A stretch of 28,576 nucleotides of DNA from Mollicutes bacterium (GCA_003551405.1 PUMO01000174.1:1-28576), one strand, 5' to 3'; counted from the stretch's first letter, positions 4,187 to 17,782 are shown. Notes: generated by a model from the sequence alone, not told the origin. Made by a program: numbers and translations.

Positions 4187-4231
4187 TATGGTATACTATA
4201 CATGTCGATAATAGGTGTAACATATATCACA
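4187..4231 (+). promoter_or_regulatory. Extended -10 (TG-G-TATACT) plus Crp-type operator TGTAACATATATCACA for regulator 1
   Basis: TATGGTATACT at 4187-4197. Imperfect palindrome at 4216-4231 directly abuts RBS GGAGGG. Same layout is seen at 9058-9101. Confidence 0.7.
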
Positions 4232-4241
4232 GGAGGGTATA

Positions 4242-4841
4242 ATGGAAAAAATTTTTTCGATACCGATGTTTCGCTCGAAAATATCTAAGCCATACCACTA
4301 CCGAGAAAATGAAATTGTTTGTACGGAAAGTAGTTATTGTAGTCAAGTTGGTTTTATTATCAAAGGGGAACTTGAACTTATTCACTACACCCTTCATGGT
4401 GATGAAGTGACGTTGGCGACGCTTAAGGAAAATAATATGTTTGGTGATTTTTTAGTGTTCACTGACCAGCCTTTTTATCCTGGGACCCTTGTTGTAAAAA
4501 AAGCAGCGGTGATTCGTTTTTTAGACCGAGACAAATTAAATGCTTTATTGCGCGAAAGCGAACAGTTTCGCCAATTATTTCTTACCCATATCAGTCAAAA
4601 AGCAATGACGATGAACCGGCAGAATAAATTATTGCTTCAACCGACCATTCGTGAAAAAGTGCATTACTATATAGCCAGAGAAGCCACTACGTATAAACCG
4701 AAAGTTCGTTATAAAAACAAAACGGCCCTAGCAAAAACAATGAATGTTCAAAGACCCTCTTTGGTTAGAGAACTCAAAAAAATGAAGGCCGAAGGCGTCA
4801 TCGATTATGATGCGTCCTATTTATGGTTTGTCCAACGATAA
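4242..4841 (+). CDS. Crp/Fnr family transcriptional regulator (paralog 1)
   Basis: cNMP-binding-like beta-barrel (VGFIIKGEL...NMFGDFLVF...YPGTLV) and C-terminal HTH ALAKTMNVQRPSLVRELKKM. Confidence 0.92.
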   Translation: MEKIFSIPMFRSKISKPYHYRENEIVCTESSYCSQVGFIIKGELELIHYTLHGDEVTLATLKENNMFGDFLVFTDQPFYPGTLVVKKAAVIRFLDRDKLNALLRESEQFRQLFLTHISQKAMTMNRQNKLLLQPTIREKVHYYIAREATTYKPKVRYKNKTALAKTMNVQRPSLVRELKKMKAEGVIDYDASYLWFVQR

Positions 4842-4846
4842 TAAGT

Positions 4847-4872
4847 AAGGCTGTGTTACACAGTCTTTTTTT
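4847..4872 (+). terminator. Intrinsic terminator after regulator 1
   Basis: AAGGCTGTG-TTA-CACAGTCTT followed by a T run. Confidence 0.75.
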
Positions 4873-4889: not shown

Positions 4890-4918
4890 TTGACACATCA
4901 TGTAAGCGCTTCTATACT
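4890..4918 (+). promoter_or_regulatory. SigmaA-type promoter for hydCBA operon 1
   Basis: TTGACA (4890-4895), 17 bp spacer, TATACT (4913-4918). Confidence 0.8.
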
Positions 4919-4965: not shown

Positions 4966-5421
4966 GTGTTAGAAAGTATTTTAAGCAAATATCCTAAAGA
5001 ACAAGACATGCTGATTGAAATTTTACTCGATGTGCAAAATCAAAAGACTGATCAATATCTAAGCGAAGCGGAAATTGAACAGATTGCATCCTATTTGTCG
5101 CTTCCTACCGCACATGTTAGCAGTGCTGTAAGTTTTTACACATTTTTTTCAACACAAAGGCGCGGCGAACATGTTATTCAGGTGTGTAAGGATGTCCCCT
5201 GCTATCTTAATGATAGCGACAATTTGGTTGATACCATTCAAAAACAACTGGGCATAGGGATGCATGAAACGACTGAAGACGGTATGTTCACATTAGAACC
5301 GACAAGTTGTCTCGGAATATGCGATGGTGCGCCGGCCATGCGGATTGGTGAACACACCTACACCAAGCTAAACAAGGACAGGGTGACGGCACTACTTGCT
5401 GAATATAGGGGGAAACGTTGA
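4966..5421 (+). CDS. hydC: [FeFe]-hydrogenase gamma subunit (NuoE/HydC-like, [2Fe-2S]), operon 1
   Basis: VSFYTFF, QVCKDVPCYL...SCLGICDGAP (C-x4-C...C-x3-C). GTG start after GAGGTG. Confidence 0.9.
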   Translation: MLESILSKYPKEQDMLIEILLDVQNQKTDQYLSEAEIEQIASYLSLPTAHVSSAVSFYTFFSTQRRGEHVIQVCKDVPCYLNDSDNLVDTIQKQLGIGMHETTEDGMFTLEPTSCLGICDGAPAMRIGEHTYTKLNKDRVTALLAEYRGKR

Positions 5422-6686
5422 TGGAACAAAAACTACTTACCAAACACATCCCGGGTATGGATCCTATGAATATTCAAGCGTATCTTGATGTGGAAGGCTA
5501 TCAGTCATTTTTTAAGGCATTTAAAACACAGCCGCTTGACATTATCGGTGATATTGAAAAATCCAAATTGCGCGGACGCGGTGGTGCTGCTTTTCCAGTG
5601 CACATCAAAATGATGTCAATGGCTAAACAAAAAGAAACCACACGTTATATCATTTGCAATGCGGATGAAGGTGAACCTGGAAATTTTAAAGATCGTTATT
5701 TGATGGAAAATAATCCACACCAGTTATTGGAAGGCATGTTGATTGCGGCGTATGCAACGCGCGCAAATAAAGGGTACATTTATATACGAGGAGAATTTGA
5801 TACACCCATTAAGATTATGCATGAAGCCATTAGGCAGGCTAAAGCACACGGTTTGCTTGGAACCAACATTCAGGGAAGTGGCTTTGATTTTGATCTTGAA
5901 ATAAGAAGTGGGGCCGGATCATATGTTTGCGGTGAAGAATTTGCGCTGATTGAGTCCATCGAAGGTAAATCCGGGCGCACACGAGTCAAACCCCCTTTCC
6001 CGACTGATGTGGGTCTCTTTGGCAAACCAACACTTATCAATAATGTCGAAACGTTTTCCAATCTTCCATGGATTCTTGCCATGGGAGGTGAGGCGTTTGC
6101 CTCCATTGGGACAGAATCTTCTACAGGCACAAAACTCGTGTCTGTTTCAGGCAATGTAAAACATCCAGGTGTCTATGAAGTGCCCTTTGGCGTCCCGATT
6201 CGTGATGTCATTGATACACTTGGGGGTGGCACACAAAACGCTCAAAAAATTGGCATGGTCCAACTAAGTGGCGCAAGTGGTCCGATCATTCCGGAATATA
6301 TGCTTGATTTGACCATCGATTTTGACCGTTTTGAAGACTTTGATTCTAAAACCGGAGCCGGTGCCATCATTGTCATGGATGATCAAAAAGATATGTTTAA
6401 TATTTTAAAACGGATTTCGGATTTCTTCGAACATGAGTCTTGTGGAAAATGTACACCATGTCGTGAGGGCAATGTCCATATGAGCAAATTGTTGAATAAA
6501 TTCCTGCAAAGCGATGCGACTGAAAAAGATTTGATGAACTTGGAGTCTTTATCGCGCGTCATGCATCAAACGTCATTGTGCGGGCTCGGACAAAGTGCTC
6601 CAACCGCAGTCCTTTCAACACTGAAGTATTTCCGTGACACGTATTTTGACCGGATAGAACATCCGCAAGAAGGGGGGCTTGCTTAA
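5421..6686 (+). CDS. hydB: [FeFe]-hydrogenase beta subunit, short NuoF-like form (FMN/NADH plus one [4Fe-4S]); predicted non-bifurcating type
   Basis: LRGRGGAAFP, CNADEGEPGNFKDR, GAGSYVCGEE, HESCGKCTPCREG...CGLG. No N-terminal thioredoxin-like domain and no C-terminal ferredoxin. ATG overlaps the hydC stop (TGATG). Confidence 0.9.
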   Translation: MEQKLLTKHIPGMDPMNIQAYLDVEGYQSFFKAFKTQPLDIIGDIEKSKLRGRGGAAFPVHIKMMSMAKQKETTRYIICNADEGEPGNFKDRYLMENNPHQLLEGMLIAAYATRANKGYIYIRGEFDTPIKIMHEAIRQAKAHGLLGTNIQGSGFDFDLEIRSGAGSYVCGEEFALIESIEGKSGRTRVKPPFPTDVGLFGKPTLINNVETFSNLPWILAMGGEAFASIGTESSTGTKLVSVSGNVKHPGVYEVPFGVPIRDVIDTLGGGTQNAQKIGMVQLSGASGPIIPEYMLDLTIDFDRFEDFDSKTGAGAIIVMDDQKDMFNILKRISDFFEHESCGKCTPCREGNVHMSKLLNKFLQSDATEKDLMNLESLSRVMHQTSLCGLGQSAPTAVLSTLKYFRDTYFDRIEHPQEGGLA

Positions 6687-8398
6687 TGCCTACAATTACA
6701 ATAAATAATCAAAAGATTGAGGCTAAAGAAGGTCAAACCATCTTAGAAGTTGCTAAAGATCATCATATAGACATTCCGACGCTTTGTCATTTTCCCGATT
6801 TGGATGTCCAATCAGATTGCCGTATTTGTATGAGTGAAATCGTCGGACAGAAAAAATTGGCACCATCATGTTCTACGCCCGTTAAAGAAGGCATGGAAAT
6901 CAAAACCAATTCACAGCGTGTATATAATGCTAGAAAAACCATTACTGAATTGCTTCTGAGCAATCATGATACCAACTGTACTGCATGTGAGCGCAATATG
7001 AATTGTGAACTCCAAACGCTTGCGGACACACTTGGAATTGATGAGAATCGTTTTGAAAACATTTTAGAGCATGAACCAATTGACGACAATAACCCTTCAA
7101 TAACCCGCAATGCGGATCGCTGTATTAAGTGTGGGCGTTGTATTGAAGTATGTAAAAATGTCCAGGGCATTCACGTGCTTGATTATATGAATCGCTCCCA
7201 TGACACCAAGGTTGCGCCGGCCCATGGCAAATTTTTAAATGATCAAGTGTGTACCTATTGTGGTCAGTGTGCCAATGTATGTCCCGTCGCCAGCATTACT
7301 GAAAAGAGTGATCTTGAAAAAGTGACGCACGCCATTCATGATGAAACTAAACATGTCATCGTTCAAACCGCCCCTGCCACCCGTGTCTCACTCGGTGAAA
7401 CACTTGGTATGGACAGCGGTTCCATTGTGACCGGTCAAATGGTCGCAGCGCTCAGACGCGTTGGGTTTGATAAAGTCTTCGACACAGATTTCACAGCTGA
7501 TTTAACCATTATGGAAGAAGGTCATGAATTATTATCACGCGTTAAAGAGGGCGGAAAACTCCCCATGATTACCAGCTGTTGTCCAGGATGGGTCAATTAT
7601 GCCGAACAGAAGAATCCCGATATGCTTGATCACTTATCGACTGCGAAAAGTCCCCAACAAATGTTTGGCGCGTTAGCCAAAACATATTACGCTGAAAAAG
7701 AGCATATTGATCCAAATAATGTTTATGTTGTTTCGATTATGCCTTGTACAGCGAAAAAATTTGAAGCCGCTCGTGAGGAAATGCAAGTTCATAAGGAAAC
7801 GGCGGATGTTGATGCTGTCTTAACCACACGCGAACTGGGTAAAATGATTAAACGTGCTGGTGTGAATTTCAAAAACATTGGTGAGGAATCTTATGATGCA
7901 CCATTTGGCATCACCTCAGGTGCTGGCGCTATTTTTGGCGCAACAGGTGGTGTCATGGAAGCAGCTTTGCGCACAGTCAGTGAAGTTGTTAATGAAAAGC
8001 CGCTTGAGAAACTTGATTTTGAAGATATCCGTGGCATGGAGGGCATCAAGGAAGCCAGCGTGACGCTTGGTGAGAACACATTTAAAGTTGCGGTTGCACA
8101 CACCCTTTCCAATGCTCAAAAAGTTCTTGATGATATTAAAGCGGGTGTTTCACCCTATGCCTTCATTGAAGTGATGGCCTGTCCCGGTGGTTGCATTGGC
8201 GGGGGTGGTCAGCCTTATACCACAACCAATGCTAAACGCCAAGAACGCATAGATGCCATCTATAACGTTGATACAGCCATGAAACTAAGAAAGTCACACG
8301 AAAATCCTGCCGTTAATACGTTATATGAAGAATACTTGAGTGAGCCACTTTCTAAACGCGCACATGATTTACTTCACACGCATTATAAACCACGCTAA
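6686..8398 (+). CDS. hydA: [FeFe]-hydrogenase catalytic alpha subunit (group A, M3-type FeS arm), operon 1, 570 aa
   Basis: [2Fe-2S] (LCH...CRIC...SC), HDTNCTACERNMNC, CIKCGRC and CTYCGQC. H-cluster motifs TSCCPGW, MPCTAKKFE, EVMACPGGCIGGGGQP. Confidence 0.96.
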   Translation: MPTITINNQKIEAKEGQTILEVAKDHHIDIPTLCHFPDLDVQSDCRICMSEIVGQKKLAPSCSTPVKEGMEIKTNSQRVYNARKTITELLLSNHDTNCTACERNMNCELQTLADTLGIDENRFENILEHEPIDDNNPSITRNADRCIKCGRCIEVCKNVQGIHVLDYMNRSHDTKVAPAHGKFLNDQVCTYCGQCANVCPVASITEKSDLEKVTHAIHDETKHVIVQTAPATRVSLGETLGMDSGSIVTGQMVAALRRVGFDKVFDTDFTADLTIMEEGHELLSRVKEGGKLPMITSCCPGWVNYAEQKNPDMLDHLSTAKSPQQMFGALAKTYYAEKEHIDPNNVYVVSIMPCTAKKFEAAREEMQVHKETADVDAVLTTRELGKMIKRAGVNFKNIGEESYDAPFGITSGAGAIFGATGGVMEAALRTVSEVVNEKPLEKLDFEDIRGMEGIKEASVTLGENTFKVAVAHTLSNAQKVLDDIKAGVSPYAFIEVMACPGGCIGGGGQPYTTTNAKRQERIDAIYNVDTAMKLRKSHENPAVNTLYEEYLSEPLSKRAHDLLHTHYKPR

Positions 8399-8401
8399 AA
8401 C

Positions 8402-8440
8402 AAAAGCCAGAATGCCTTTTTCAGGTCATTCTGGCTTTTT
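8402..8440. terminator. Bidirectional terminator between hydA (operon 1) and regulator 2
   Basis: AAAAGCCAGAATG...CATTCTGGCTTTT stem with A and T flanks. Confidence 0.85.
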
Positions 8441-9051
8441 TATATTTGACACGTTTTATTATTGAGCGCATAGGTTTTATTTGACCGAATAATGAGGCCT
8501 TCCTTGATTAACGCATTCATTGTGCGTGATAAGGAAGGTCTTTGCACGTTGAGTTGTGTGGCAAGTGTCTGAATGGATTGAATGGTAATGTGATCGGTTT
8601 GTTGGATGCGCATTTGTTGTTCTAAATGCATAATGATTTTTTCTCTTAATGAAGGCTGTTGAAGTACTTTATTGCTGGTAAATATATTTTGAGCCTTGTC
8701 ACTTAACGTTTCAATAAATGCATCTCTGAATTGCTTATCGTGATTTATGGCCGCTTGTAAATCTTTGCGCGCTAAATAGGACACTTTTGTGTCCGCCTGT
8801 GCAATGAGATGGCCTATGTAAAACGGTGTGTTTGATAAGATGAGCACCTCACCAAACGTTTCGCCGGCTTTGATTATGTTCAACGTTGACATTTCTCCGT
8901 TATTGTTATAGTGGATGAGCGCCAATGACCCTGTAATGACATATCCTATATAATCACACCGCTCCCCTTCGGAACTGATGATGTATCCTTTAGGGTAATG
9001 ACACGGCAACATCCAGGAAACGTTTTCAGTATTTTCGTGAAACAATTTCAT
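8440..9051 (-). CDS. Crp/Fnr family transcriptional regulator (paralog 2)
   Basis: EGERCDYIGYVITGSL...ETFGEVLIL...FYIGHLIA and HTH TLATQLNVQRPSLSRTMNAL. ATG 9051 follows GAGGTG. Confidence 0.92.
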   Translation of the reverse strand: MKLFHENTENVSWMLPCHYPKGYIISSEGERCDYIGYVITGSLALIHYNNNGEMSTLNIIKAGETFGEVLILSNTPFYIGHLIAQADTKVSYLARKDLQAAINHDKQFRDAFIETLSDKAQNIFTSNKVLQQPSLREKIIMHLEQQMRIQQTDHITIQSIQTLATQLNVQRPSLSRTMNALIKEGLIIRSNKTYALNNKTCQI

Positions 9052-9057
9052 CACCTC

Positions 9058-9101
9058 TGTAACTTATGTTACGTTTGTTTTTGTCATTGTATTTTACCAT
9101 A
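9058..9101 (-). promoter_or_regulatory. Extended -10 (TG-G-TAAAAT) plus operator CGTAACATAAGTTACA for regulator 2
   Basis: Minus strand reads TATGGTAAAAT (9101-9091), 17 nt, then a perfect GTAAC-N4-GTTAC palindrome (9073-9058) abutting RBS GAGGTG. Confidence 0.75.
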
Positions 9102-9164
9102 TTTTTGGATGTGTAAGGTGTAATATAAAATATTTTAAAAAATATTCTTACAGGGAGTGATTGA

Positions 9165-9674
9165 ATGTCATCACTATTCGATATGGAATCTTTTGATCAA
9201 GATAAGGTTCAATTACTGGATGACTATATTGGCAATTATGTTGCGCAAAATAATTTAGAAGCGCTGATACCCGCGCTTTATAAAGCGCAAACGTTGTTTG
9301 GCTATTTACCAGCTGCCCTGCAACGACATATCGCAGAAAAACTTGATTTGCCCAGTGCGCATGTGAACGGTGTGGTTTCGTTTTATGCGTATTTCAGTGA
9401 AGTTCCCAAAGGAAAATATGCGATATCGGTTTGTACGGGGACGGCATGTCATGTAAAAGGTGCTTCCGATGTGTTAAATAAAGCAAGAGAAGTGGCTGGT
9501 GCACATGGTGAAACAATGAGTGAGGACGGTCTTTTCAGTGTCAATGATGTCAGGTGTATTGGTGCGTGTGGTCTCGCGCCTGTTGTGACCATTAATGGCA
9601 AAGTCCACGGAAAAATCGATGCAAAAGATATGGAAAAAATTATTCGAAGCACCAAGGAGACTGAAAATGCTTGA
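9165..9674 (+). CDS. hydC: [FeFe]-hydrogenase gamma subunit (NuoE/HydC-like), operon 2
   Basis: LYKAQTLFGYLP, VVSFYAYF, VCTGTACHVKG...RCIGACGLAP. Confidence 0.93.
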   Translation: MSSLFDMESFDQDKVQLLDDYIGNYVAQNNLEALIPALYKAQTLFGYLPAALQRHIAEKLDLPSAHVNGVVSFYAYFSEVPKGKYAISVCTGTACHVKGASDVLNKAREVAGAHGETMSEDGLFSVNDVRCIGACGLAPVVTINGKVHGKIDAKDMEKIIRSTKETENA

Positions 9675-11484
9675 ATCATTTGAGGCGCTAAAGAATTGGA
9701 AATCAACGATTAAAGAACAGTCCACGCACCGCTTGGAAATACTTGTTTGTGCCGGAACATCATGTTTATCTTCACAAGCGGATGCACTGCTTGAAATGTT
9801 CACCCATGAAATTCATGAATACTCACTGGATGCTGAGGTCGTTGTGACCCCCACAGGCTGTTTTGGATTTTGTGGACAGGGTCCGATTTTAAAAATCGAA
9901 CCGGACAATGTCACGTACGTGCAAGTCGGCGCTGATGATGTGAAGACGATTGTGGATGAACATTTGAATGCTGGACGCATTGTTGAACACTTACTATATG
10001 ACCCACCCGGTCAGAAACGTTCCACCAGTGAAGCGGGCATGCCTTTTTATCAAAAACAACACCGTGTTGCGCTTAAGAAATGTGGTGTCATTGATCCCAA
10101 GAACATTGAACACGCCATTAAGCATAGCGCTTATGAAGCCTTAGGAACGGTGTTGCACACCATGGATAGTGATGACGTGATTGACATCATTAAACAAAGT
10201 GGTCTACGCGGACGCGGTGGTGGCGGTTTTCCCACCGGTTTGAAATGGCAATTTACCAGCACCACTCAAGCAGATGAAAAATATGTGGTATGTAATGCGG
10301 ATGAAGGGGACCCTGGTGCATTTATGGACCGAAGCATCATGGAAGGAGACCCCCATACAATCTTAGAAGCCATGGCAATCAATGGTTATGCTGTTGGGGC
10401 TAACAAGGGGTTTATCTATATTCGCGCTGAATATGAATTGGCGACTCAAAGATTATTTAAGGCGCTTTCGGATGCACGCAAACATGGTCTGCTCGGTCAA
10501 AATATTTTAGGCAGCGGGTTTGATTTTGACATTGAAATCAAACTTGGTGCAGGTGCTTTTGTGTGTGGTGAGGAGACGGCGCTCATTCATTCCATGGAAG
10601 GATACCGCGGAGAACCAACAACAAAACCACCGTTTCCTAGTGATGTTGGTTTTAGAACCTTGCCTACCAATGTTAATAATGTTGAAACGTATGCGAACAT
10701 TCCTTCAATCATTTTAAAAGGTCAACGCTGGTTTCAATCGATTGGGACTAAAAATTCTAAAGGAACCAAAGTATTTGCACTGGCTGGCGATGTTGTAAAT
10801 ATTGGTCTCGTTGAAGTCCCCATGGGGATTACTGTTAGAGAAATTGTAGAAGATATCGGTGGTGGTGTTGATGGCGATAAAAAGTTAAAAGCCGTTCAAA
10901 TTGGCGGGCCTTCAGGCGGTGTCATTACGGGGGATGATTTGGATTTACCCATTGACTACGACTCACTGCAATCCGCAGGTGCGATGATGGGAAGCGGTGG
11001 ACTCATTGTCATGGATGACGATACCGACATGGTTGAAATTGCGAAGTTTTATTTGGAATTCACTGAAGATGAATCATGCGGAAAATGCACACCATGTCGG
11101 ATTGGGACCAAGCGCATTCACGAAATTTTGCATCGTCTAACCGATATGGAAGGAACGCCTGAAGATTTGGAATTGCTTGAAGCACTTTGTAACAATGTCA
11201 AAAACACGTCACTGTGTGGACTCGGTCAATCGGCGCCCAATCCGGTATTGTCAACCATGCATCACTTTAAAAATGAGTATGAGGATTACGCCTACCGACG
11301 TAAAAAAACCAGTTATTCAATCGATGCGGACAAATGCATTGGATGCACACGCTGCAAAAAAGTGTGTCCGGTTGACTGTATCAGCGGTTCGGTCAAAACC
11401 GTACATGTCATTGATGAATCTGCCTGCATTGCATGTGGAGCATGCGATGATGCATGTCCCGTCGATGCAATCATTAGACCTTGA
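9667..11484 (+). CDS. hydB: [FeFe]-hydrogenase beta subunit, long form (N-terminal [2Fe-2S], FMN/NADH, [4Fe-4S], C-terminal 2x[4Fe-4S]); bifurcating-type signatures, 605 aa
   Basis: VCAGTSC...GCFGFCGQGP, LRGRGGGGFP, CNADEGDPGAFMDR, GAGAFVCGEET, GGPSGG, ESCGKCTPC, CIGCTRCKKVCP and CIACGACDDACP. Start moved to ATG 9667 (AAGGAG RBS). Confidence 0.93.
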   Translation: MLESFEALKNWKSTIKEQSTHRLEILVCAGTSCLSSQADALLEMFTHEIHEYSLDAEVVVTPTGCFGFCGQGPILKIEPDNVTYVQVGADDVKTIVDEHLNAGRIVEHLLYDPPGQKRSTSEAGMPFYQKQHRVALKKCGVIDPKNIEHAIKHSAYEALGTVLHTMDSDDVIDIIKQSGLRGRGGGGFPTGLKWQFTSTTQADEKYVVCNADEGDPGAFMDRSIMEGDPHTILEAMAINGYAVGANKGFIYIRAEYELATQRLFKALSDARKHGLLGQNILGSGFDFDIEIKLGAGAFVCGEETALIHSMEGYRGEPTTKPPFPSDVGFRTLPTNVNNVETYANIPSIILKGQRWFQSIGTKNSKGTKVFALAGDVVNIGLVEVPMGITVREIVEDIGGGVDGDKKLKAVQIGGPSGGVITGDDLDLPIDYDSLQSAGAMMGSGGLIVMDDDTDMVEIAKFYLEFTEDESCGKCTPCRIGTKRIHEILHRLTDMEGTPEDLELLEALCNNVKNTSLCGLGQSAPNPVLSTMHHFKNEYEDYAYRRKKTSYSIDADKCIGCTRCKKVCPVDCISGSVKTVHVIDESACIACGACDDACPVDAIIRP

Positions 11485-11494
11485 GGAGGCCACT

Positions 11495-13249
11495 ATGGGT
11501 AAAGAATATTCAAGTGTAAGAATCACCATTAACAATATCACTTTAGAAGTTGATCACGGTAGTACTGTCCTGGACGCCGCCAAGCAAGCCGGCATCAATA
11601 TTCCAACACTTTGTCATTTGGACTTGCATGATCTTGATGCCATCAATCAAAGTGCCAATTGTCGCGTATGTTTAGTGGAAAATGAAACACGTGGCACTTT
11701 GGTCCCATCATGTGCTGAAATTGTGCAGGACGGGATGCGTATTCAAACGGATACCAAAAAGGCGGTCCAAGGCAGGCGAACGTCGATGGAACTGCTCCTC
11801 AGCAATCATCCGAAAGAGTGTTTAACGTGTGTGAAAAATCTTGATTGTGACCTTCAAGAGCTTTCCAACTCCATGAACATTAAAGATATCCCTTATCAAG
11901 GAGAAATGATGAATCATCCAGTTGATGATTCCAGTGGAGCCATCATTAAAGATCCCAACAAATGTGTCATGTGTCGCCGGTGTATGACAATGTGTGATGA
12001 GGTGCAAACCGTTGGCGTACTTTCTCCACTTAAACGCGGATTTGATGTATCAGTGGGCACAGCATTTCATTTGGATTTAAGTGAAACAAGCTGTACGTAT
12101 TGTGGACAATGTGTCAGCGTGTGTCCCACCGCTGCACTTGCTGAACATCCGCATGTACCCAATGTATGGCGCCGGTTGAATAATCCTAACCGTCACACAG
12201 TGGTACAGATTGCGCCGGCTGTACGTGTCGCCATTGGCGAAATGTTTGGGTATGAAGCGGGTGAAATTTCAACCGGAAAACTGATCGCGGCGTTGAGGCG
12301 ACTGGGCTTCGATGGTGTTTTTGACACCAAGTTTGGTGCGGATTTAACCATTGTTGAAGAAGCCAATGAATTTCTTGAGCGCTTAAATAATGATGGGCCC
12401 CTCCCCCTTTTAACATCGTGTTGCCCTGCATGGGTTAATTTCATTGAGCAGAAATATCCGGATTTGCTTGATATTCCATCAAGCTGTAAAAGCCCACAAA
12501 GCATGGTTGGCAGTTTATCAAAAACATACTATGCAAAGACCATGGGCGTTGACCCACAAAATATTCGCATGGTAGCTGTGATGCCGTGTGTGGCCAAAAA
12601 AGCAGAAGCGGCCCGTGATGAGCTGGCATATGGTGAGCAAAGAGATGTTGATTATGTGATTACCACACGTGAACTTGGGGCCATGATTAAAGAAGCTGCG
12701 ATTGACTTTAATAACTTGCCGGATGACAGCTTTGATGATATTTTGGGTGAATCAACCGGTGCCTCAAGTATTTTTGGCACCACCGGTGGCGTTGTTGAAG
12801 CAACCGCGCGTACAGCCTATGAGAACGTGACAGGCAAGACACTTGAAAATGGTGAATTTGAAACCATTCGATGGATGGAAGGCTTGCGTAAAGCGTCGGT
12901 TACTTTAAACGGCCGTACCATCAACATTGCCGTCGCCCATGAACTCAAAAACGCACGAAAACTACTTGATAGCATCCGTTCAGGTGACAGTGACCTTGAT
13001 CTGATTGAAATCATGGCGTGCCCCGGTGGGTGTATTGGTGGCGGTGGTCAGCCGTTTCACCATGGTGATATCAATGTGCTGAATAAACGTCGTGAGGCTT
13101 TATATACACTTGATAAAAACAATGTGCGTAGAAAAAGTCATGAAAATGAACAAGTTAAAACGTTATATCAGAAGTTTCTTGGCGATATTGGTGGCCAAAA
13201 AGCCCATGAACTTTTACATACTTCTTATTCTAAAAAACTACGTATATAA
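11495..13249 (+). CDS. hydA: [FeFe]-hydrogenase catalytic alpha subunit (group A, M3-type), operon 2, 584 aa
   Basis: GAGGAGG RBS then ATG 11495 (MGKEYSS...). HPKECLTCVKNLDC, CVMCRRC and CTYCGQC. H-cluster motifs TSCCPAW, MPCVAKKAE, EIMACPGGCIGGGGQP. Confidence 0.96.
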   Translation: MGKEYSSVRITINNITLEVDHGSTVLDAAKQAGINIPTLCHLDLHDLDAINQSANCRVCLVENETRGTLVPSCAEIVQDGMRIQTDTKKAVQGRRTSMELLLSNHPKECLTCVKNLDCDLQELSNSMNIKDIPYQGEMMNHPVDDSSGAIIKDPNKCVMCRRCMTMCDEVQTVGVLSPLKRGFDVSVGTAFHLDLSETSCTYCGQCVSVCPTAALAEHPHVPNVWRRLNNPNRHTVVQIAPAVRVAIGEMFGYEAGEISTGKLIAALRRLGFDGVFDTKFGADLTIVEEANEFLERLNNDGPLPLLTSCCPAWVNFIEQKYPDLLDIPSSCKSPQSMVGSLSKTYYAKTMGVDPQNIRMVAVMPCVAKKAEAARDELAYGEQRDVDYVITTRELGAMIKEAAIDFNNLPDDSFDDILGESTGASSIFGTTGGVVEATARTAYENVTGKTLENGEFETIRWMEGLRKASVTLNGRTINIAVAHELKNARKLLDSIRSGDSDLDLIEIMACPGGCIGGGGQPFHHGDINVLNKRREALYTLDKNNVRRKSHENEQVKTLYQKFLGDIGGQKAHELLHTSYSKKLRI

Positions 13250-13297: not shown

Positions 13298-14233
13298 CTA
13301 ATGGAGTTGATCGTAGTAATATTTCAGTGTATTTGCGGAATGTTTGAGTGACGCTTTTTCAGATTCGTCGAGTGAGAGCTCAACAATATGGTGGATGCCA
13401 TCTTTGTTGATGACGGCGGGCAGACCAATGTATATATGTGCACAATCGTATTCACCTTGGTTTAACACACTGAGTGGAAGAATGCGGTTTTCATTATTGA
13501 TAATTGCGGATGTGATTCTAACCAAGCTTATACCAATTCCGTAATAGGTCGCGCTTTTGCGTGCAATAATTTCACCGGCGGCGTTTTTGACGCGCTTGGC
13601 AATGTGGTCCAAATCTTCAAAGTTGATCGCGTGCATGCTTTTGATAACATCTTTGATGGGCTTGGCCCCAACATAAGCATTAGACCATACCACAAATTCA
13701 CTTTCACCGTGCTCGCCCAATATATATGCATGCACATTGCGCGTATCAATGTTAATTTGGTGGCCTATTTCATAGCGAAGTCTGGCGGTATCGAGACTGG
13801 TGCCGCTTCCGATGACTTTTTCTTTAGGAAGTTGTGATGCATCATAGACAATTTGTGTCATGATATCCACTGGATTGGACGCGACCAGTAAAATCCCTTT
13901 AAAACCACTTTCCATAATACTATGGGTGATGCTTCGCATAATGTCTGCGTTTCGATCCAACAAATCCAGACGGCTTTCATCTGGCTTTTGATTGACCCCT
14001 GCGGTAATGACCACTAAGTCGGCATCCTTACAGTCGCTATAGGTCCCTGCATATATGTTCATATGACGCGGTGAAAAGGGGATACCATGATTTAAATCCA
14101 TCGCTTCGCCCTCAGCACGTGAATCATCAATGTCAATTAATACCAAATCAGATACCACACCTTGGTTTAAGAGTGCATAGGCATAAGACATGCCCACAAG
14201 GCCAGTACCAATAATAACAACTTTTGATTTCAT
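13298..14233 (-). CDS. ldh: L-lactate dehydrogenase, 311 aa
   Basis: IIGTGLVG Rossmann motif, specificity loop GVNQKPDESRLDL (Gln, LDH type), ASNPVD, GTSLDTARLR, GEHG, ATYYGIG. Start ATG 14233 after AGGAGG. Confidence 0.95.
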   Translation of the reverse strand: MKSKVVIIGTGLVGMSYAYALLNQGVVSDLVLIDIDDSRAEGEAMDLNHGIPFSPRHMNIYAGTYSDCKDADLVVITAGVNQKPDESRLDLLDRNADIMRSITHSIMESGFKGILLVASNPVDIMTQIVYDASQLPKEKVIGSGTSLDTARLRYEIGHQINIDTRNVHAYILGEHGESEFVVWSNAYVGAKPIKDVIKSMHAINFEDLDHIAKRVKNAAGEIIARKSATYYGIGISLVRITSAIINNENRILPLSVLNQGEYDCAHIYIGLPAVINKDGIHHIVELSLDESEKASLKHSANTLKYYYDQLH

Positions 14234-14460
14234 AATCGCCTCCTTGAAACTCATTGTATCAACTGAGCTTTAAAGGGAGGGCGCATGTGCACTAGATTAC
14301 AAATAATCAGTCAATTATCCATTCCTTCATGCTTTTTTATGCAAAGAAAGCCTATTTTTTAGCGCGGGTCCGAATGACAACATGGTTTATGTTTGCTTAT
14401 AAATTGTTAAGTGTTATGGGATATGATACACTTTGATTAACAAACAATTGGAGGGGTATT

Positions 14461-16005: not shown

Positions 16006-16395
16006 ATGCGTAAAAAACTATTGTTAAGTTTAAGTGTATTTTTAGTGTTGTTCTCTTTGGCCGCTTGTGGCAACGGGGATGATGAAGTGGAAGACACCCC
16101 CGATGATGAACTCCGTGAGTTTACACTTGAAGAGCTCTCCGAATATGATGGTGAAGATGGGGCCGATGCCTATGTTGCTGTTGATGGGTATGTTTATGAT
16201 ATGACAGATTCAGCCCAATGGACGGAAGGATCGCATCAAGGCCAAGTTCAAGCGGGACAAGATTTAACAGAAGAAATTGACAACAATGATCGTCATGGTC
16301 GTGAAATGCTTGATCGTGTGCCACGTATTGGCATCTTGGTAGAATCATCGGATGAAGAAAATTCTGATAACGATGATGACAATGGTGGTTATTAA
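16006..16395 (+). CDS. Cytochrome b5-like heme/steroid-binding domain lipoprotein
   Basis: Lipobox LAAC (Cys21). FTLEELSEYDG...AYVAVDGYVYD..., W..GSH...AGQDLT...HG with two His as candidate heme ligands. Confidence 0.88.
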   Translation: MRKKLLLSLSVFLVLFSLAACGNGDDEVEDTPDDELREFTLEELSEYDGEDGADAYVAVDGYVYDMTDSAQWTEGSHQGQVQAGQDLTEEIDNNDRHGREMLDRVPRIGILVESSDEENSDNDDDNGGY

Positions 16396-16402
16396 TCTTT
16401 TG

Positions 16403-16436
16403 AACGGTGATGCAAACGATATTGCTCACCGTTTTC
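16403..16436 (+). terminator. Intercistronic hairpin (weak terminator or mRNA stabiliser)
   Basis: AACGGTGA...TCACCGTT stem with only a short T tail, between the cyt b5 gene and the ferric-reductase-like gene. Confidence 0.5.
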
Positions 16437-16459
16437 AGTCTTTACGATAGGAGGACATT

Positions 16460-17782
16460 ATGAAATTTATCAAAGAATCGTATAAAGGCATTGTTTTTCT
16501 TTTGGTATTGATGGTTGTCAATGCTCTGCTTTGGTTAACTGCAGAACCGATCATTGATCAGTCACTTCAGAGCACCATCGCGCAAGTATTGGGCGCAACC
16601 CTATTACTTGGGTTTACAATGGTGTTTTTCCTCTCCACAAAAAATCGTGTGGTGAACTGGCTCTTTGGTGGGCTTGAAAATGTCTATTTTGCGCACCGGT
16701 GGTTAGCGATGTTCTCTTTTCTATTTATATTTGTACATGGTCAAACCACGAATTTGATTATTCAGTATTACCGAGATGTTCCCTTGAGCGCTGCGTCAAT
16801 GGGACCATGGGCAAGGAATTTATTTATTGGGCTCATTGTGATGGCGTTACTTGCTAAATATATGAAATATGAGCATTGGCGACTGATTCACCGTTTCATG
16901 GTCGTGCCGTATGTGCTTGCTTTTTATCATGCGGTGTTTATCAGTTCATATGATTTGGTGTCACTGAGTCCGCTTGGCATTTGGACAATGTCCTTGGGTG
17001 TCGTTGGGGTCAGTTCAAGTGTTTATATGATTGCGATTTATCGCAAAACTGCTTTCAAACATAAAGGCAGCGTCGTCTCTAAAAATATTCTGGCCGGTGA
17101 TGTGACTGAGATAGAGATCGATTTAGGTGAAACGCTTGATTTTAAGACCGGTCAATTCGTTTTTATTAAAATTAACAAATCGCCATTTGATGGTGTGCCC
17201 CATCCCTTTTCAGTTTCTGGTGGTAAAGATACCCGTATCTTTTTTACCATTAAGGCACTGGGGGACTATACAGAAGATTTAAAAACACACCTTGAAGAGG
17301 GTGACACCGTAGAAGTAACTCGTGCGTATGGTCACATGACGTTTGATGATTATCCTTCGCCTCAGGTGTGGATTGCCGGCGGCATCGGTATAACGCCGTT
17401 TTTGTCCCATGTTCGAAACATGGATCCACCTAAACAAAAAATTACGCTTTATTACTCAGTAAAAGAAAAAAGTGAGGCGGTTCATCTCGATTTATTTCGT
17501 CGAATGGATCAACAATATGAAAATTTCAATTTTGTTTTTTCTGAGAGCGACAAGGATGGGTTTTTCAGTGTGAACGATTTTGATTTGAGTGATGCCCCCC
17601 ATGTGATGATGTGTGGTCCGCTTCCCATGGCTAAAGCGCTTAAAAAACAATTCGCACGAATTGATGATCACCAGGCCTTGACCTATGAAGCGTTCAGTTT
17701 TACTGGCACCCTGGTAGAAGACACGGTTGCTTATTTTAAACGGTTAATCAAAAAATTCAGAATGAGATTTTCACAACAATAG
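16460..17782 (+). CDS. Ferric reductase-like transmembrane flavocytochrome (bacterial NOX-like) with FAD/NAD(P)H-binding domain
   Basis: TM His pairs H-x13-H (AHRW...FVHG) and H-x12-H (IHRF...FYHA); GQFVF, HPFS, KALGDYT, IAGGIGITPF, MCGP, terminal EAFSF. Confidence 0.9.
   Translation: MKFIKESYKGIVFLLVLMVVNALLWLTAEPIIDQSLQSTIAQVLGATLLLGFTMVFFLSTKNRVVNWLFGGLENVYFAHRWLAMFSFLFIFVHGQTTNLIIQYYRDVPLSAASMGPWARNLFIGLIVMALLAKYMKYEHWRLIHRFMVVPYVLAFYHAVFISSYDLVSLSPLGIWTMSLGVVGVSSSVYMIAIYRKTAFKHKGSVVSKNILAGDVTEIEIDLGETLDFKTGQFVFIKINKSPFDGVPHPFSVSGGKDTRIFFTIKALGDYTEDLKTHLEEGDTVEVTRAYGHMTFDDYPSPQVWIAGGIGITPFLSHVRNMDPPKQKITLYYSVKEKSEAVHLDLFRRMDQQYENFNFVFSESDKDGFFSVNDFDLSDAPHVMMCGPLPMAKALKKQFARIDDHQALTYEAFSFTGTLVEDTVAYFKRLIKKFRMRFSQQ

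Follow-up and report, generated by a model that had tools for sequence, protein, structure and literature searches.

Two complete hydC-hydB-hydA operons lie side by side on the + strand (positions 4966 to 13249) of a 28,576-nucleotide (nt) contig from a Mollicutes bacterium (GCA_003551405.1, PUMO01000174.1:1-28576), hereafter the window. They encode two paralogous heterotrimeric [FeFe]-hydrogenase complexes, which would form separate transcription units, each beside its own Crp/Fnr-family regulator, and which are predicted to differ in their electron donors. None of the maturases HydE, HydF and HydG was found in this genome or in most of the relatives that have both types of beta subunit, and the hydrogenase genes evolve under purifying selection. 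The reading that we favor, at about even confidence, is that both complexes are working hydrogenases of two predicted kinds, whose H-cluster is matured by a route other than HydEFG.

An earlier reading of the sequence (the original prediction) had described back-to-back HydABC operons with intact H-cluster motifs, one predicted to be non-bifurcating and the other bifurcating. Analysis of open reading frames (ORFs) and Pfam domains confirmed two complete operons with these motifs; they are indeed adjacent, but in tandem on the same strand, with 766 nt between them.

4966-5421, + strand: hydC1, NuoE-like [2Fe-2S] subunit, 151 amino acids (aa) (Pfam 2Fe-2S_thioredx, E 1e-47)
5421-6686, + strand: hydB1, short NuoF-only flavoprotein, 421 aa, with Asn88, Lys90, Tyr168 and SGASG at the positions of Losey et al.
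6686-8398, + strand: hydA1, [FeFe]-hydrogenase catalytic subunit, 570 aa (NF040763, 877 bits)
9165-9674, + strand: hydC2, NuoE-like [2Fe-2S] subunit, 169 aa (Pfam)
9667-11484, + strand: hydB2, Bfu-type flavoprotein, 605 aa, with an N-terminal 4-Cys [2Fe-2S] domain, A/M/F, GGPSG and C-terminal 2x[4Fe-4S]
11498-13249, + strand: hydA2, [FeFe]-hydrogenase catalytic subunit, 583 aa (NF040763, 852 bits)

For hydB1, a start at the TTG at 5418 would give 422 aa, and the ATG at 5421 gives 421 aa. The contig belongs to a 1.30-Mb metagenome-assembled genome (MAG) of 222 contigs that is 83.6% complete. Matches to Fe_hyd_lg_C in this genome were confined to hydA1 and hydA2, and a search of it for an [NiFe] large subunit, as an alternative hydrogenase, found none. 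PFOR-type enzymes and RnfD are encoded in the genome.

Typing of the two complexes

Losey et al. (2020) distinguished bifurcating from non-bifurcating beta (HydB) subunits by four criteria: extra Fe-S domains, which mark the bifurcating betas; the residues at positions 232 and 234 of TmHydB, which are Ala/Glu and Met in bifurcating versus Thr/Ser and Lys/Ser/Ala in non-bifurcating enzymes; Phe (bifurcating) versus Tyr (non-bifurcating) at the flavin mononucleotide (FMN) site; and the GGPSG motif (PMC7311640). In HydB1, Pfam detected only Complex1_51K, SLBB and NADH_4Fe-4S along the 421 aa, in agreement with the described lack of the extra N-terminal [2Fe-2S] and C-terminal 2x[4Fe-4S] domains, and the strings GGAAFP, DEGEPGNFK, SYVCGEE and SGASG quoted for it were all found. 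The subunit has the non-bifurcating architecture and three of the four non-bifurcating residue features (Lys, Tyr and no GGPSG), and it aligned with the solved bifurcating HydBs of the PDB over the core only. NuoF-only betas support NADH-dependent, ferredoxin-independent H2 production in three characterized systems, those of Syntrophomonas wolfei, Syntrophus aciditrophicus and the fungus Caecomyces churrovis (2026) (PMC5626996, PMC7311640, PMC13556243). The assignment of HydB1 to the NADH-only type is thus backed by its architecture, Lys, Tyr, the missing GGPSG and its place in the trees, with an Asn instead of Thr/Ser as the discordant element. Complex 1 (HydA1B1C1) would have a beta subunit reduced to the NuoF core, with FMN, an NADH site and one [4Fe-4S] cluster and with no ferredoxin-reducing branch; electrons would therefore run from NADH only, through FMN and the Fe-S chain to the H-cluster, making it a plain NADH:H+ oxidoreductase that would be useful only at very low H2.

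HydB2 carries both of the extra domains ascribed to it, an N-terminal 2Fe-2S_thioredx and a C-terminal double Fer4 (Pfam), besides the NuoF core, as well as the quoted strings GGGGFP, DEGDPGAFM, AFVCGEE and GGPSG. It displays every bifurcating feature of the 2020 scheme (A/M/F, GGPSG and both extra domains), with Cys at residues 28, 33, 65 and 69 and two CxxCxxCxxxCP motifs. Alignments with PDB entries ran from end to end and scored 709 bits for Acetobacterium woodii, 670 for Thermoanaerobacter kivui, 589 for Thermotoga maritima and 719 for the A. mobile NiFe-HydB. HydB2 and HydC2 keep all redox cofactor motifs of the Bfu core, namely, B1, B3, B4, B5 and C1, plus the FMN/NADH core. Complex 2 (HydA2B2C2), a form peculiar to this lineage in that the structural Zn site is missing, is predicted to make H2 from NADH together with ferredoxin or flavodoxin reduced by PFOR.

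HydB phylogenies were computed with FastTree on 182 core sequences (HydB1, HydB2, samples of close homologues and the top 150 representatives retrieved when 1.84 billion proteins were searched) and with IQ-TREE on 81 rows. HydB1 fell outside the bifurcating clade and HydB2 inside it, in trees that held no characterized non-bifurcating row. FastTree placed HydB1 in a 17-row N-K-Y clade (support 96-99) nested among short T-K-Y betas; the neighbors of this clade include a Halanaerobium MAG protein, the nearest named short beta, and short betas of the Halanaerobium type are listed by Losey et al. as predicted non-bifurcating (PMC7311640). With IQ-TREE, HydB1 belonged to an 18-row clade of 10 N-K-Y and 8 T-K-Y sequences without any A-M-F member (SH-aLRT 96). 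HydB2 was located inside the A-M-F/GGPSG clade by FastTree, and IQ-TREE agreed. Because the best match of HydB1 in a 50%-identity representative library was only 47-48% identical, the Mycoplasmatota short-beta clade is, at the sequence level, well separated from all other short betas. Together, the Losey criteria, the trees and the NADH dependence without ferredoxin of the three characterized NuoF-only systems support the original typing of both betas as sound. Donor specificity and coupling, like the activity and the differential regulation of the complexes, are what we infer.

Both catalytic subunits scored above the 765-bit cut-off of NCBIfam NF040763 ("NADH-dependent [FeFe] hydrogenase, group A6"). 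HydA1 and HydA2 share 47% identity, and TSCCP, MPCxxKKxE and ExMACPGGCIGGGGQP are present in both. The H-cluster motifs L1 to L3 did not vary among 18 sequences of the HydA1 type or among the 17 HydA2-type sequences from the closest group, sets that take in orthologues from 17 and 16 relatives, respectively, besides the MAG. In four genomes of families f2/f3 (G029, G026, G034 and G038; loci L136, L124, L130 and L118), the second HydA has TSCSP in place of TSCCP, i.e., Ser for the proton-relay Cys, and its L3 reads CINGGGQP; this type may represent a different functional subclass.

Maturation genes and the state of the enzymes

Of 40 Izemoplasmatales relatives, 17 have a long beta as well as a short one with 58-77% identity to HydB1, and because of this distribution the operon pair is taken as ancestral, or old, in the Izemoplasmatales/Acholeplasmatales; judged from substitution patterns, it is kept by purifying selection. 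Ratios of nonsynonymous to synonymous substitution rates (dN/dS) against the sister locus L137 were 0.08 for hydC1, 0.10 for hydB1, 0.02 for hydA1, 0.06 for hydC2, 0.06 for hydB2 and 0.05 for hydA2, at a synonymous divergence of 0.12-0.28. The neighboring flavodoxin (0.015) and L-lactate dehydrogenase (0.07) genes gave values similar to those of the six hyd genes.

HydE and HydF were found in only five (G015, G016, G019, G021 and G022) of the 41 genomes made up of the MAG and its 40 relatives, and HydG was found in those HydE/HydF-bearing relatives that were tested and on a single G007 contig. Of the 17 relatives that combine the two beta types, 15 had no HydE, HydF or HydG, among them G018 and G025 (both 99% complete), G029 (closed), G031 (100%) and G037 (97%). 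In G019, hydE-hydG-hydF lie directly downstream of dnaB; the same site in the MAG (contig C151) is occupied by a lipoprotein gene, RF1, prmC and topA. A tblastn search of the MAG with HydE, HydG and HydF of G019 found nothing beyond Der-like GTPases, and the six radical-SAM genes of the MAG code for MiaB, MtaB, MnmL, a B12-type enzyme, glutamate 2,3-aminomutase and an AmmeMemoRadiSam protein. HypFCDE in place of HydG was considered and rejected, HypD being absent from the MAG and four relatives. An alternative maturase beside the operons was likewise dismissed: clustering of the ORFs of 45 loci of at least 12 kb identified only hydC, hydB and hydA as conserved, and the other recurrent ORFs were antisense shadows. 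G007 is the sole genome of the same genus with a HydG match (C112:1748-3145, C99; 498 bits); it has no HydB and a partial HydA, and the HydG contig may be foreign, the contamination of G007 being 5%.

The pattern extends through a sample of 151 genomes drawn from the whole class (149 with a completeness of 90% or more), in which HydA (Fe_hyd_lg_C) was found in 93 genomes and HydG in 23, all among the 93, leaving 70 with HydA and no HydG. Whole families are HydA positive and HydG negative (12/12 versus 0/12 in f10; 7/8 versus 0/8 in f19), and searches of five HydA-positive genomes that are closed or nearly so, from four other families, found neither HydE nor HydF. Control genomes behaved as expected in every maturase search, with models giving 450-930 bits where the genes exist. 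A limited literature search found no report on maturase-less HydABC in these bacteria, which is no proof of novelty; archaea and certain protists that lack HydEFG have been proposed to use an alternative maturation route (PMC11216029). Tentatively, and well short of even confidence, we propose that a large branch of small-genome, mostly wall-less Bacilli, which takes in several further families besides this Izemoplasmatales genus and Peloplasma/Mariniplasma-like Acholeplasmatales, keeps canonical HydABC under selection without HydE, HydF, HydG or HypD and makes the H-cluster by a HydEFG-independent route of the kind suggested for archaea and some protists.

Gene content, domains, motifs, phylogenetic placement, selection and the failure to find maturases were observed directly, and several observations weigh against two working hydrogenases of the predicted kinds. 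Neither HydG nor HydE had a model match in the 83.6%-complete MAG, and HydF had only generic GTPase matches, which does not prove absence from the species itself. In the isolate Peloplasma aerotolerans, which has the same operon pair, HydG and HydF were not found and HypD was absent; its reported products are acetate, ethanol and CO2, gas chromatography was in use, and H2 is not listed (PMC11122141). As HydE, HydF, HydG and HypD were not found, H2 production by both complexes must count as unproven. The HydB trees were built without the experimentally characterized non-bifurcating betas of S. wolfei and S. aciditrophicus and without T. maritima, PDB alignments taking their place for the bifurcating side. 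HydB1 has Asn (DEGEPGNFK) where Thr/Ser is expected at the position of TmHydB 232, in disagreement with the Losey scheme. HydB2 lacks all four ligands of the 3Cys+1His Zn (B2) site found in all solved Bfu betas, a site whose His ligand is kept in all but 8 of 1558 BfuB sequences (Schut 2022; PMC9304861).

That gaps in the assembly, binning or extreme divergence hid the maturase genes of an ordinary hydrogenase pair could be argued for a MAG that is just 83.6% complete and split into 222 contigs, but this is very unlikely: the same absence recurs in 12 relatives that are at least 95% complete, two of them closed, and in the five closed or near-closed genomes of other families, genomes that have the genes give model scores of 450-930 bits, a tblastn search of the MAG with the HydE and HydG of Izimaplasma was negative, the site downstream of dnaB holds RF1, prmC and topA, and the six radical-SAM genes are other enzymes. 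The main rival to working hydrogenases is that the complexes no longer make H2. Without HydEFG, they would assemble only the [4Fe-4S] part of the H-cluster and would fill another redox role, e.g., that of an NADH-linked diaphorase or electron-transfer module. This fits with maturases not being found in 35-36 of the 41 genomes, including closed ones or ones at least 97% complete, nor in the P. aerotolerans isolate, among whose listed products H2 is absent (PMC11122141). We nevertheless consider it unlikely, given that the residues of the [2Fe] subcluster and proton path (TSCCP, MPCxxKKxE and the bridging Cys of ExMxCPxGC) are invariant in maturase-less genomes, whose HydAs are intact, with TSCCP, MPCxxKKxE and ExMxCPxGCxxGGGQP unchanged. 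Relaxed selection after maturase loss was not seen (dN/dS of 0.09 and 0.07 versus 0.11 in maturase-bearing relatives, deeper pairs being saturated at synonymous sites), and a comparison of HydAs between maturase-less and maturase-bearing genomes for signature substitutions found only conservative changes, with no systematic difference between the sets. Moreover, NADH-only enzymes yield only tens of Pa of H2 (PMC7311640), which routine gas chromatography could miss. Because residues that serve only the [2Fe] subcluster are conserved though HydE, HydF and HydG were not found, the H-cluster would still be made, by a non-HydEFG route, on the working-hydrogenase reading that we favor. The P. aerotolerans paper labels the copies NuoE, NuoF and hydrogenases A1 and A3, without comment (PMC11122141). 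The proposal that the locus serves a switchable H2 disposal does not hold as it stood, since it presumes that the hydrogenases are active; the lineage yielded no HydE, HydF or HydG, and H2 is not listed for P. aerotolerans.

Two further alternatives concern the type of each complex. Solved Bfu betas have a Cys in D-x-x-C-M-V, plus the linker motif H-x5-CP-x3-C, and alignment with PDB 8a6t, 7t2r, 7q4v and 8oh5 located the changes in HydB2 as follows.

11014-11040, + strand: HydB2 segment DDDTDMVEI, with Asp454 in place of the first Zn(B2) Cys ligand (PDB alignment)
11275-11325, + strand: HydB2 linker EYEDYAYRRKKTSYSID, in which His is changed to Tyr and an 8-residue deletion takes out the CPxxxC ligands

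This loss is common to 119 of the 120 closest HydB2 homologues, including those of Izimaplasma HR1 and ZiA1, and the Zn-less homologues form one clade (FastTree support 100). The four B2 residues bind the Zn hinge of Furlan 2022 and Katsyv 2023, a site proposed as the hinge for the mobile domain (PMC9499530). Loss of this near-universal hinge of BfuB (PMC9304861), with its four ligands gone and the linker shortened by 8 residues, might uncouple the C-terminal ferredoxin domain and leave complex 2 NADH-only or ferredoxin-only. We regard this as quite unlikely: B3/B4, B5, C1 and A/M/F/GGPSG are conserved across the Zn-less clade, including maturase-bearing Izimaplasma, and later structures treat the B2 Zn as redox-inert, with a minimal bifurcating site of B1-FMN-C1 feeding B3/B4 (PMC11829005). 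Because that Zn is redox-inert and HydB2/HydC2 retain B1-FMN-C1 and B3/B4, complex 2 is still predicted to confurcate, with lower confidence owing to the loss of the Zn site. The bifurcating type originally proposed for HydB2 is accordingly upheld as to domains, motifs and placement in the Bfu clade, with the caveat that the Zn site of all solved Bfu enzymes is lost. As for complex 1, HydA1 might also take electrons directly from ferredoxin or flavodoxin at its N-terminal clusters, in the manner of monomeric clostridial hydrogenases, so that the complex would not be strictly NADH-only. HydA1 does have the full N-terminal [2Fe-2S] + [4Fe-4S] array, and HydB1 departs from the Losey signature at one position, where Asn is kept in 112 of its 120 closest homologues; yet characterized short-beta complexes did not use ferredoxin (PMC5626996, PMC13556243), and this alternative appears decidedly improbable.

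The maturase gap is the part worth follow-up, as the enzymes are under selection in bacteria in which no known H-cluster maturase was found. If they are active, they would offer a tractable bacterial entry to how the [2Fe] subcluster is made without HydEFG, and a natural Zn-less test of the hinge model for Bfu bifurcation. A HydEFG-independent route, if true, would come with cultured bacterial models (e.g., P. aerotolerans) and maturase-bearing sister genera for comparison. If the enzymes are inactive, many genome-based predictions of H2 production for Izemoplasma, Acholeplasma and RF39-like bacteria need revisiting.

Locus context, regulators and habitat

The operons are flanked or separated by the following features.

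1988-2413, + strand: flavodoxin gene (Pfam Flavodoxin_1, E 9e-26), 1.8 kb upstream of the regulator-1/operon-1 unit
4213-4232: TGTAAC-N5-TCACA before regulator 1, candidate Crp-type operator
4242-4841, + strand: Crp/Fnr-family regulator 1, upstream of operon 1 (Pfam cNMP_binding + HTH_Crp_2)
4847-4867, + strand: terminator-like hairpin with T-run after regulator 1 (hairpin scan and sequence)
4890-4918, + strand: promoter-like TTGACA-17-TATACT before hydC1 (best of the region, 11/12 positions; a consensus match only)
8406-8441, no strand assigned: hairpin GCCAGAATG...CATTCTGGC with flanking T/A runs (found by eye; its loop exceeds 8 nt, so the scanner did not list it)
8440-9054, - strand: Crp/Fnr-family regulator 2, divergent from operon 2 (Pfam cNMP_binding + HTH_Crp_2)
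9059-9072, no strand assigned: palindrome GTAAC-N4-GTTAC in the 110-nt divergent spacer between regulator 2 and hydC2, candidate Crp-type operator by sequence only
13298-14254, - strand: L-lactate dehydrogenase gene (Pfam Ldh_1_N + Ldh_1_C), convergent with operon 2, an alternative NADH sink

The two regulators are 34% identical. The hairpin at 8406-8435, between hydA1 and the convergent regulator 2 gene, is likely a bidirectional terminator for both, and the separate promoter-like and terminator-like sites count in favor of separate transcription units. Independent control of the two operons is plausible, and the flavodoxin is a possible low-potential partner of the Bfu-type enzyme. Farther along the window, positions 16006-17782 code for a cytochrome b5-like protein (129 aa) and then a ferric-reductase/NOX-like membrane flavoprotein (Pfam Ferric_reduct, FAD_binding_8, NAD_binding_1).

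Outside the MAG, the tandem layout with both regulators, flavodoxin and lactate dehydrogenase was seen only in L137 and L138, which represent a sister strain or species found in different samples. As a conserved feature, the tandem was therefore discarded: it is restricted to this species group, and the two operons of other genomes are separated by 12-19 kb or lie on different contigs. Among 44 further loci for which 12 kb or more of sequence was available, none had the second operon within 9 kb, and hydC, hydB and hydA were the only conserved neighbors.

The closest named records to HydB1 come from uncultured Izemoplasmatales and "Mollicutes" MAGs (77-69% identity), and HydB1 is 68% identical to its counterpart in the P. 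aerotolerans isolate M4Ah. The datasets that contain this DNA are salt-lake and soda-lake metagenomes only, with no RNA run among them. A gene of the MAG (G000:C104:3080-4180) matches glutamate 2,3-aminomutase at 590 bits, slightly below the equivalog cut-off; beta-glutamate may thus serve as a compatible solute, in keeping with a soda-lake or salt-lake habitat.

Comparison with known systems

The original prediction held that such a pair would be notable in a fermenter that is not a classical syntroph. This novelty cannot be claimed, since Losey et al. (2020) already reported the short type in many non-syntrophic anaerobes and both types in single genomes and proposed their use according to H2 level (PMC7311640). 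Halothermothrix orenii, Dehalobacter and Ruminiclostridium papyrosolvens appear in both of their lists (PMC7311640), and the present locus has the same short-beta and long-beta trimeric pair as these non-syntrophic anaerobes, with the same H2-level idea. Unlike in those two-type genomes, the operons here are adjacent, each has a Crp-family regulator, and the host is a wall-less Izemoplasmatales bacterium. The typed pair is thus a published pattern, to which the locus adds a new host lineage, the tandem layout and the lineage deviations (Asn in HydB1, Zn-less HydB2).

Operon 1 codes for the same hydC-hydB-hydA trimer as S. wolfei Hyd1ABC and the short-beta HydABC of Halanaerobium/Halothermothrix, the latter predicted to be non-bifurcating (Losey 2017, 2020). 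Its beta resembles theirs in size (about 400-430 aa), in carrying only FMN, the NADH site and one [4Fe-4S] cluster, in its diagnostic Lys and Tyr residues and in the lack of GGPSG, and it groups with such betas in the tree. It differs from the S. wolfei type by Asn for Thr at the first NADH-site position and by SGASG/GGACG for GGxSG, both changes being conserved across the HydB1 clade, and no short beta from outside that clade is more than 48% identical to it. In contrast to S. wolfei-type systems, no maturase genes were found in the host of operon 1.

Compared with the bifurcating (Bfu) HydABC of T. maritima, A. woodii and T. kivui (PDB 7p5h, 7q4v and 8a6t), HydB2 has the same domain order, A/M/F/GGPSG and the B1, B3, B4, B5 and C1 cluster motifs, and aligns over its full length (589-709 bits). 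In contrast to those enzymes, it has lost the four Zn(B2) ligands and its linker is 8 residues shorter, while HydA2 lacks the C-terminal extension of the T. maritima type. With regard to maturation, the closest parallel drawn is with [FeFe]-hydrogenases in HydEFG-less hosts, i.e., most archaeal carriers, Giardia and Entamoeba (Cell 2024; PMC11216029), which share the canonical H-cluster motifs and the lack of recognizable maturases. Here, in contrast, the hosts are bacteria, the enzymes are multimeric and NADH linked, and close relatives (Izimaplasma) still have hydEFG.

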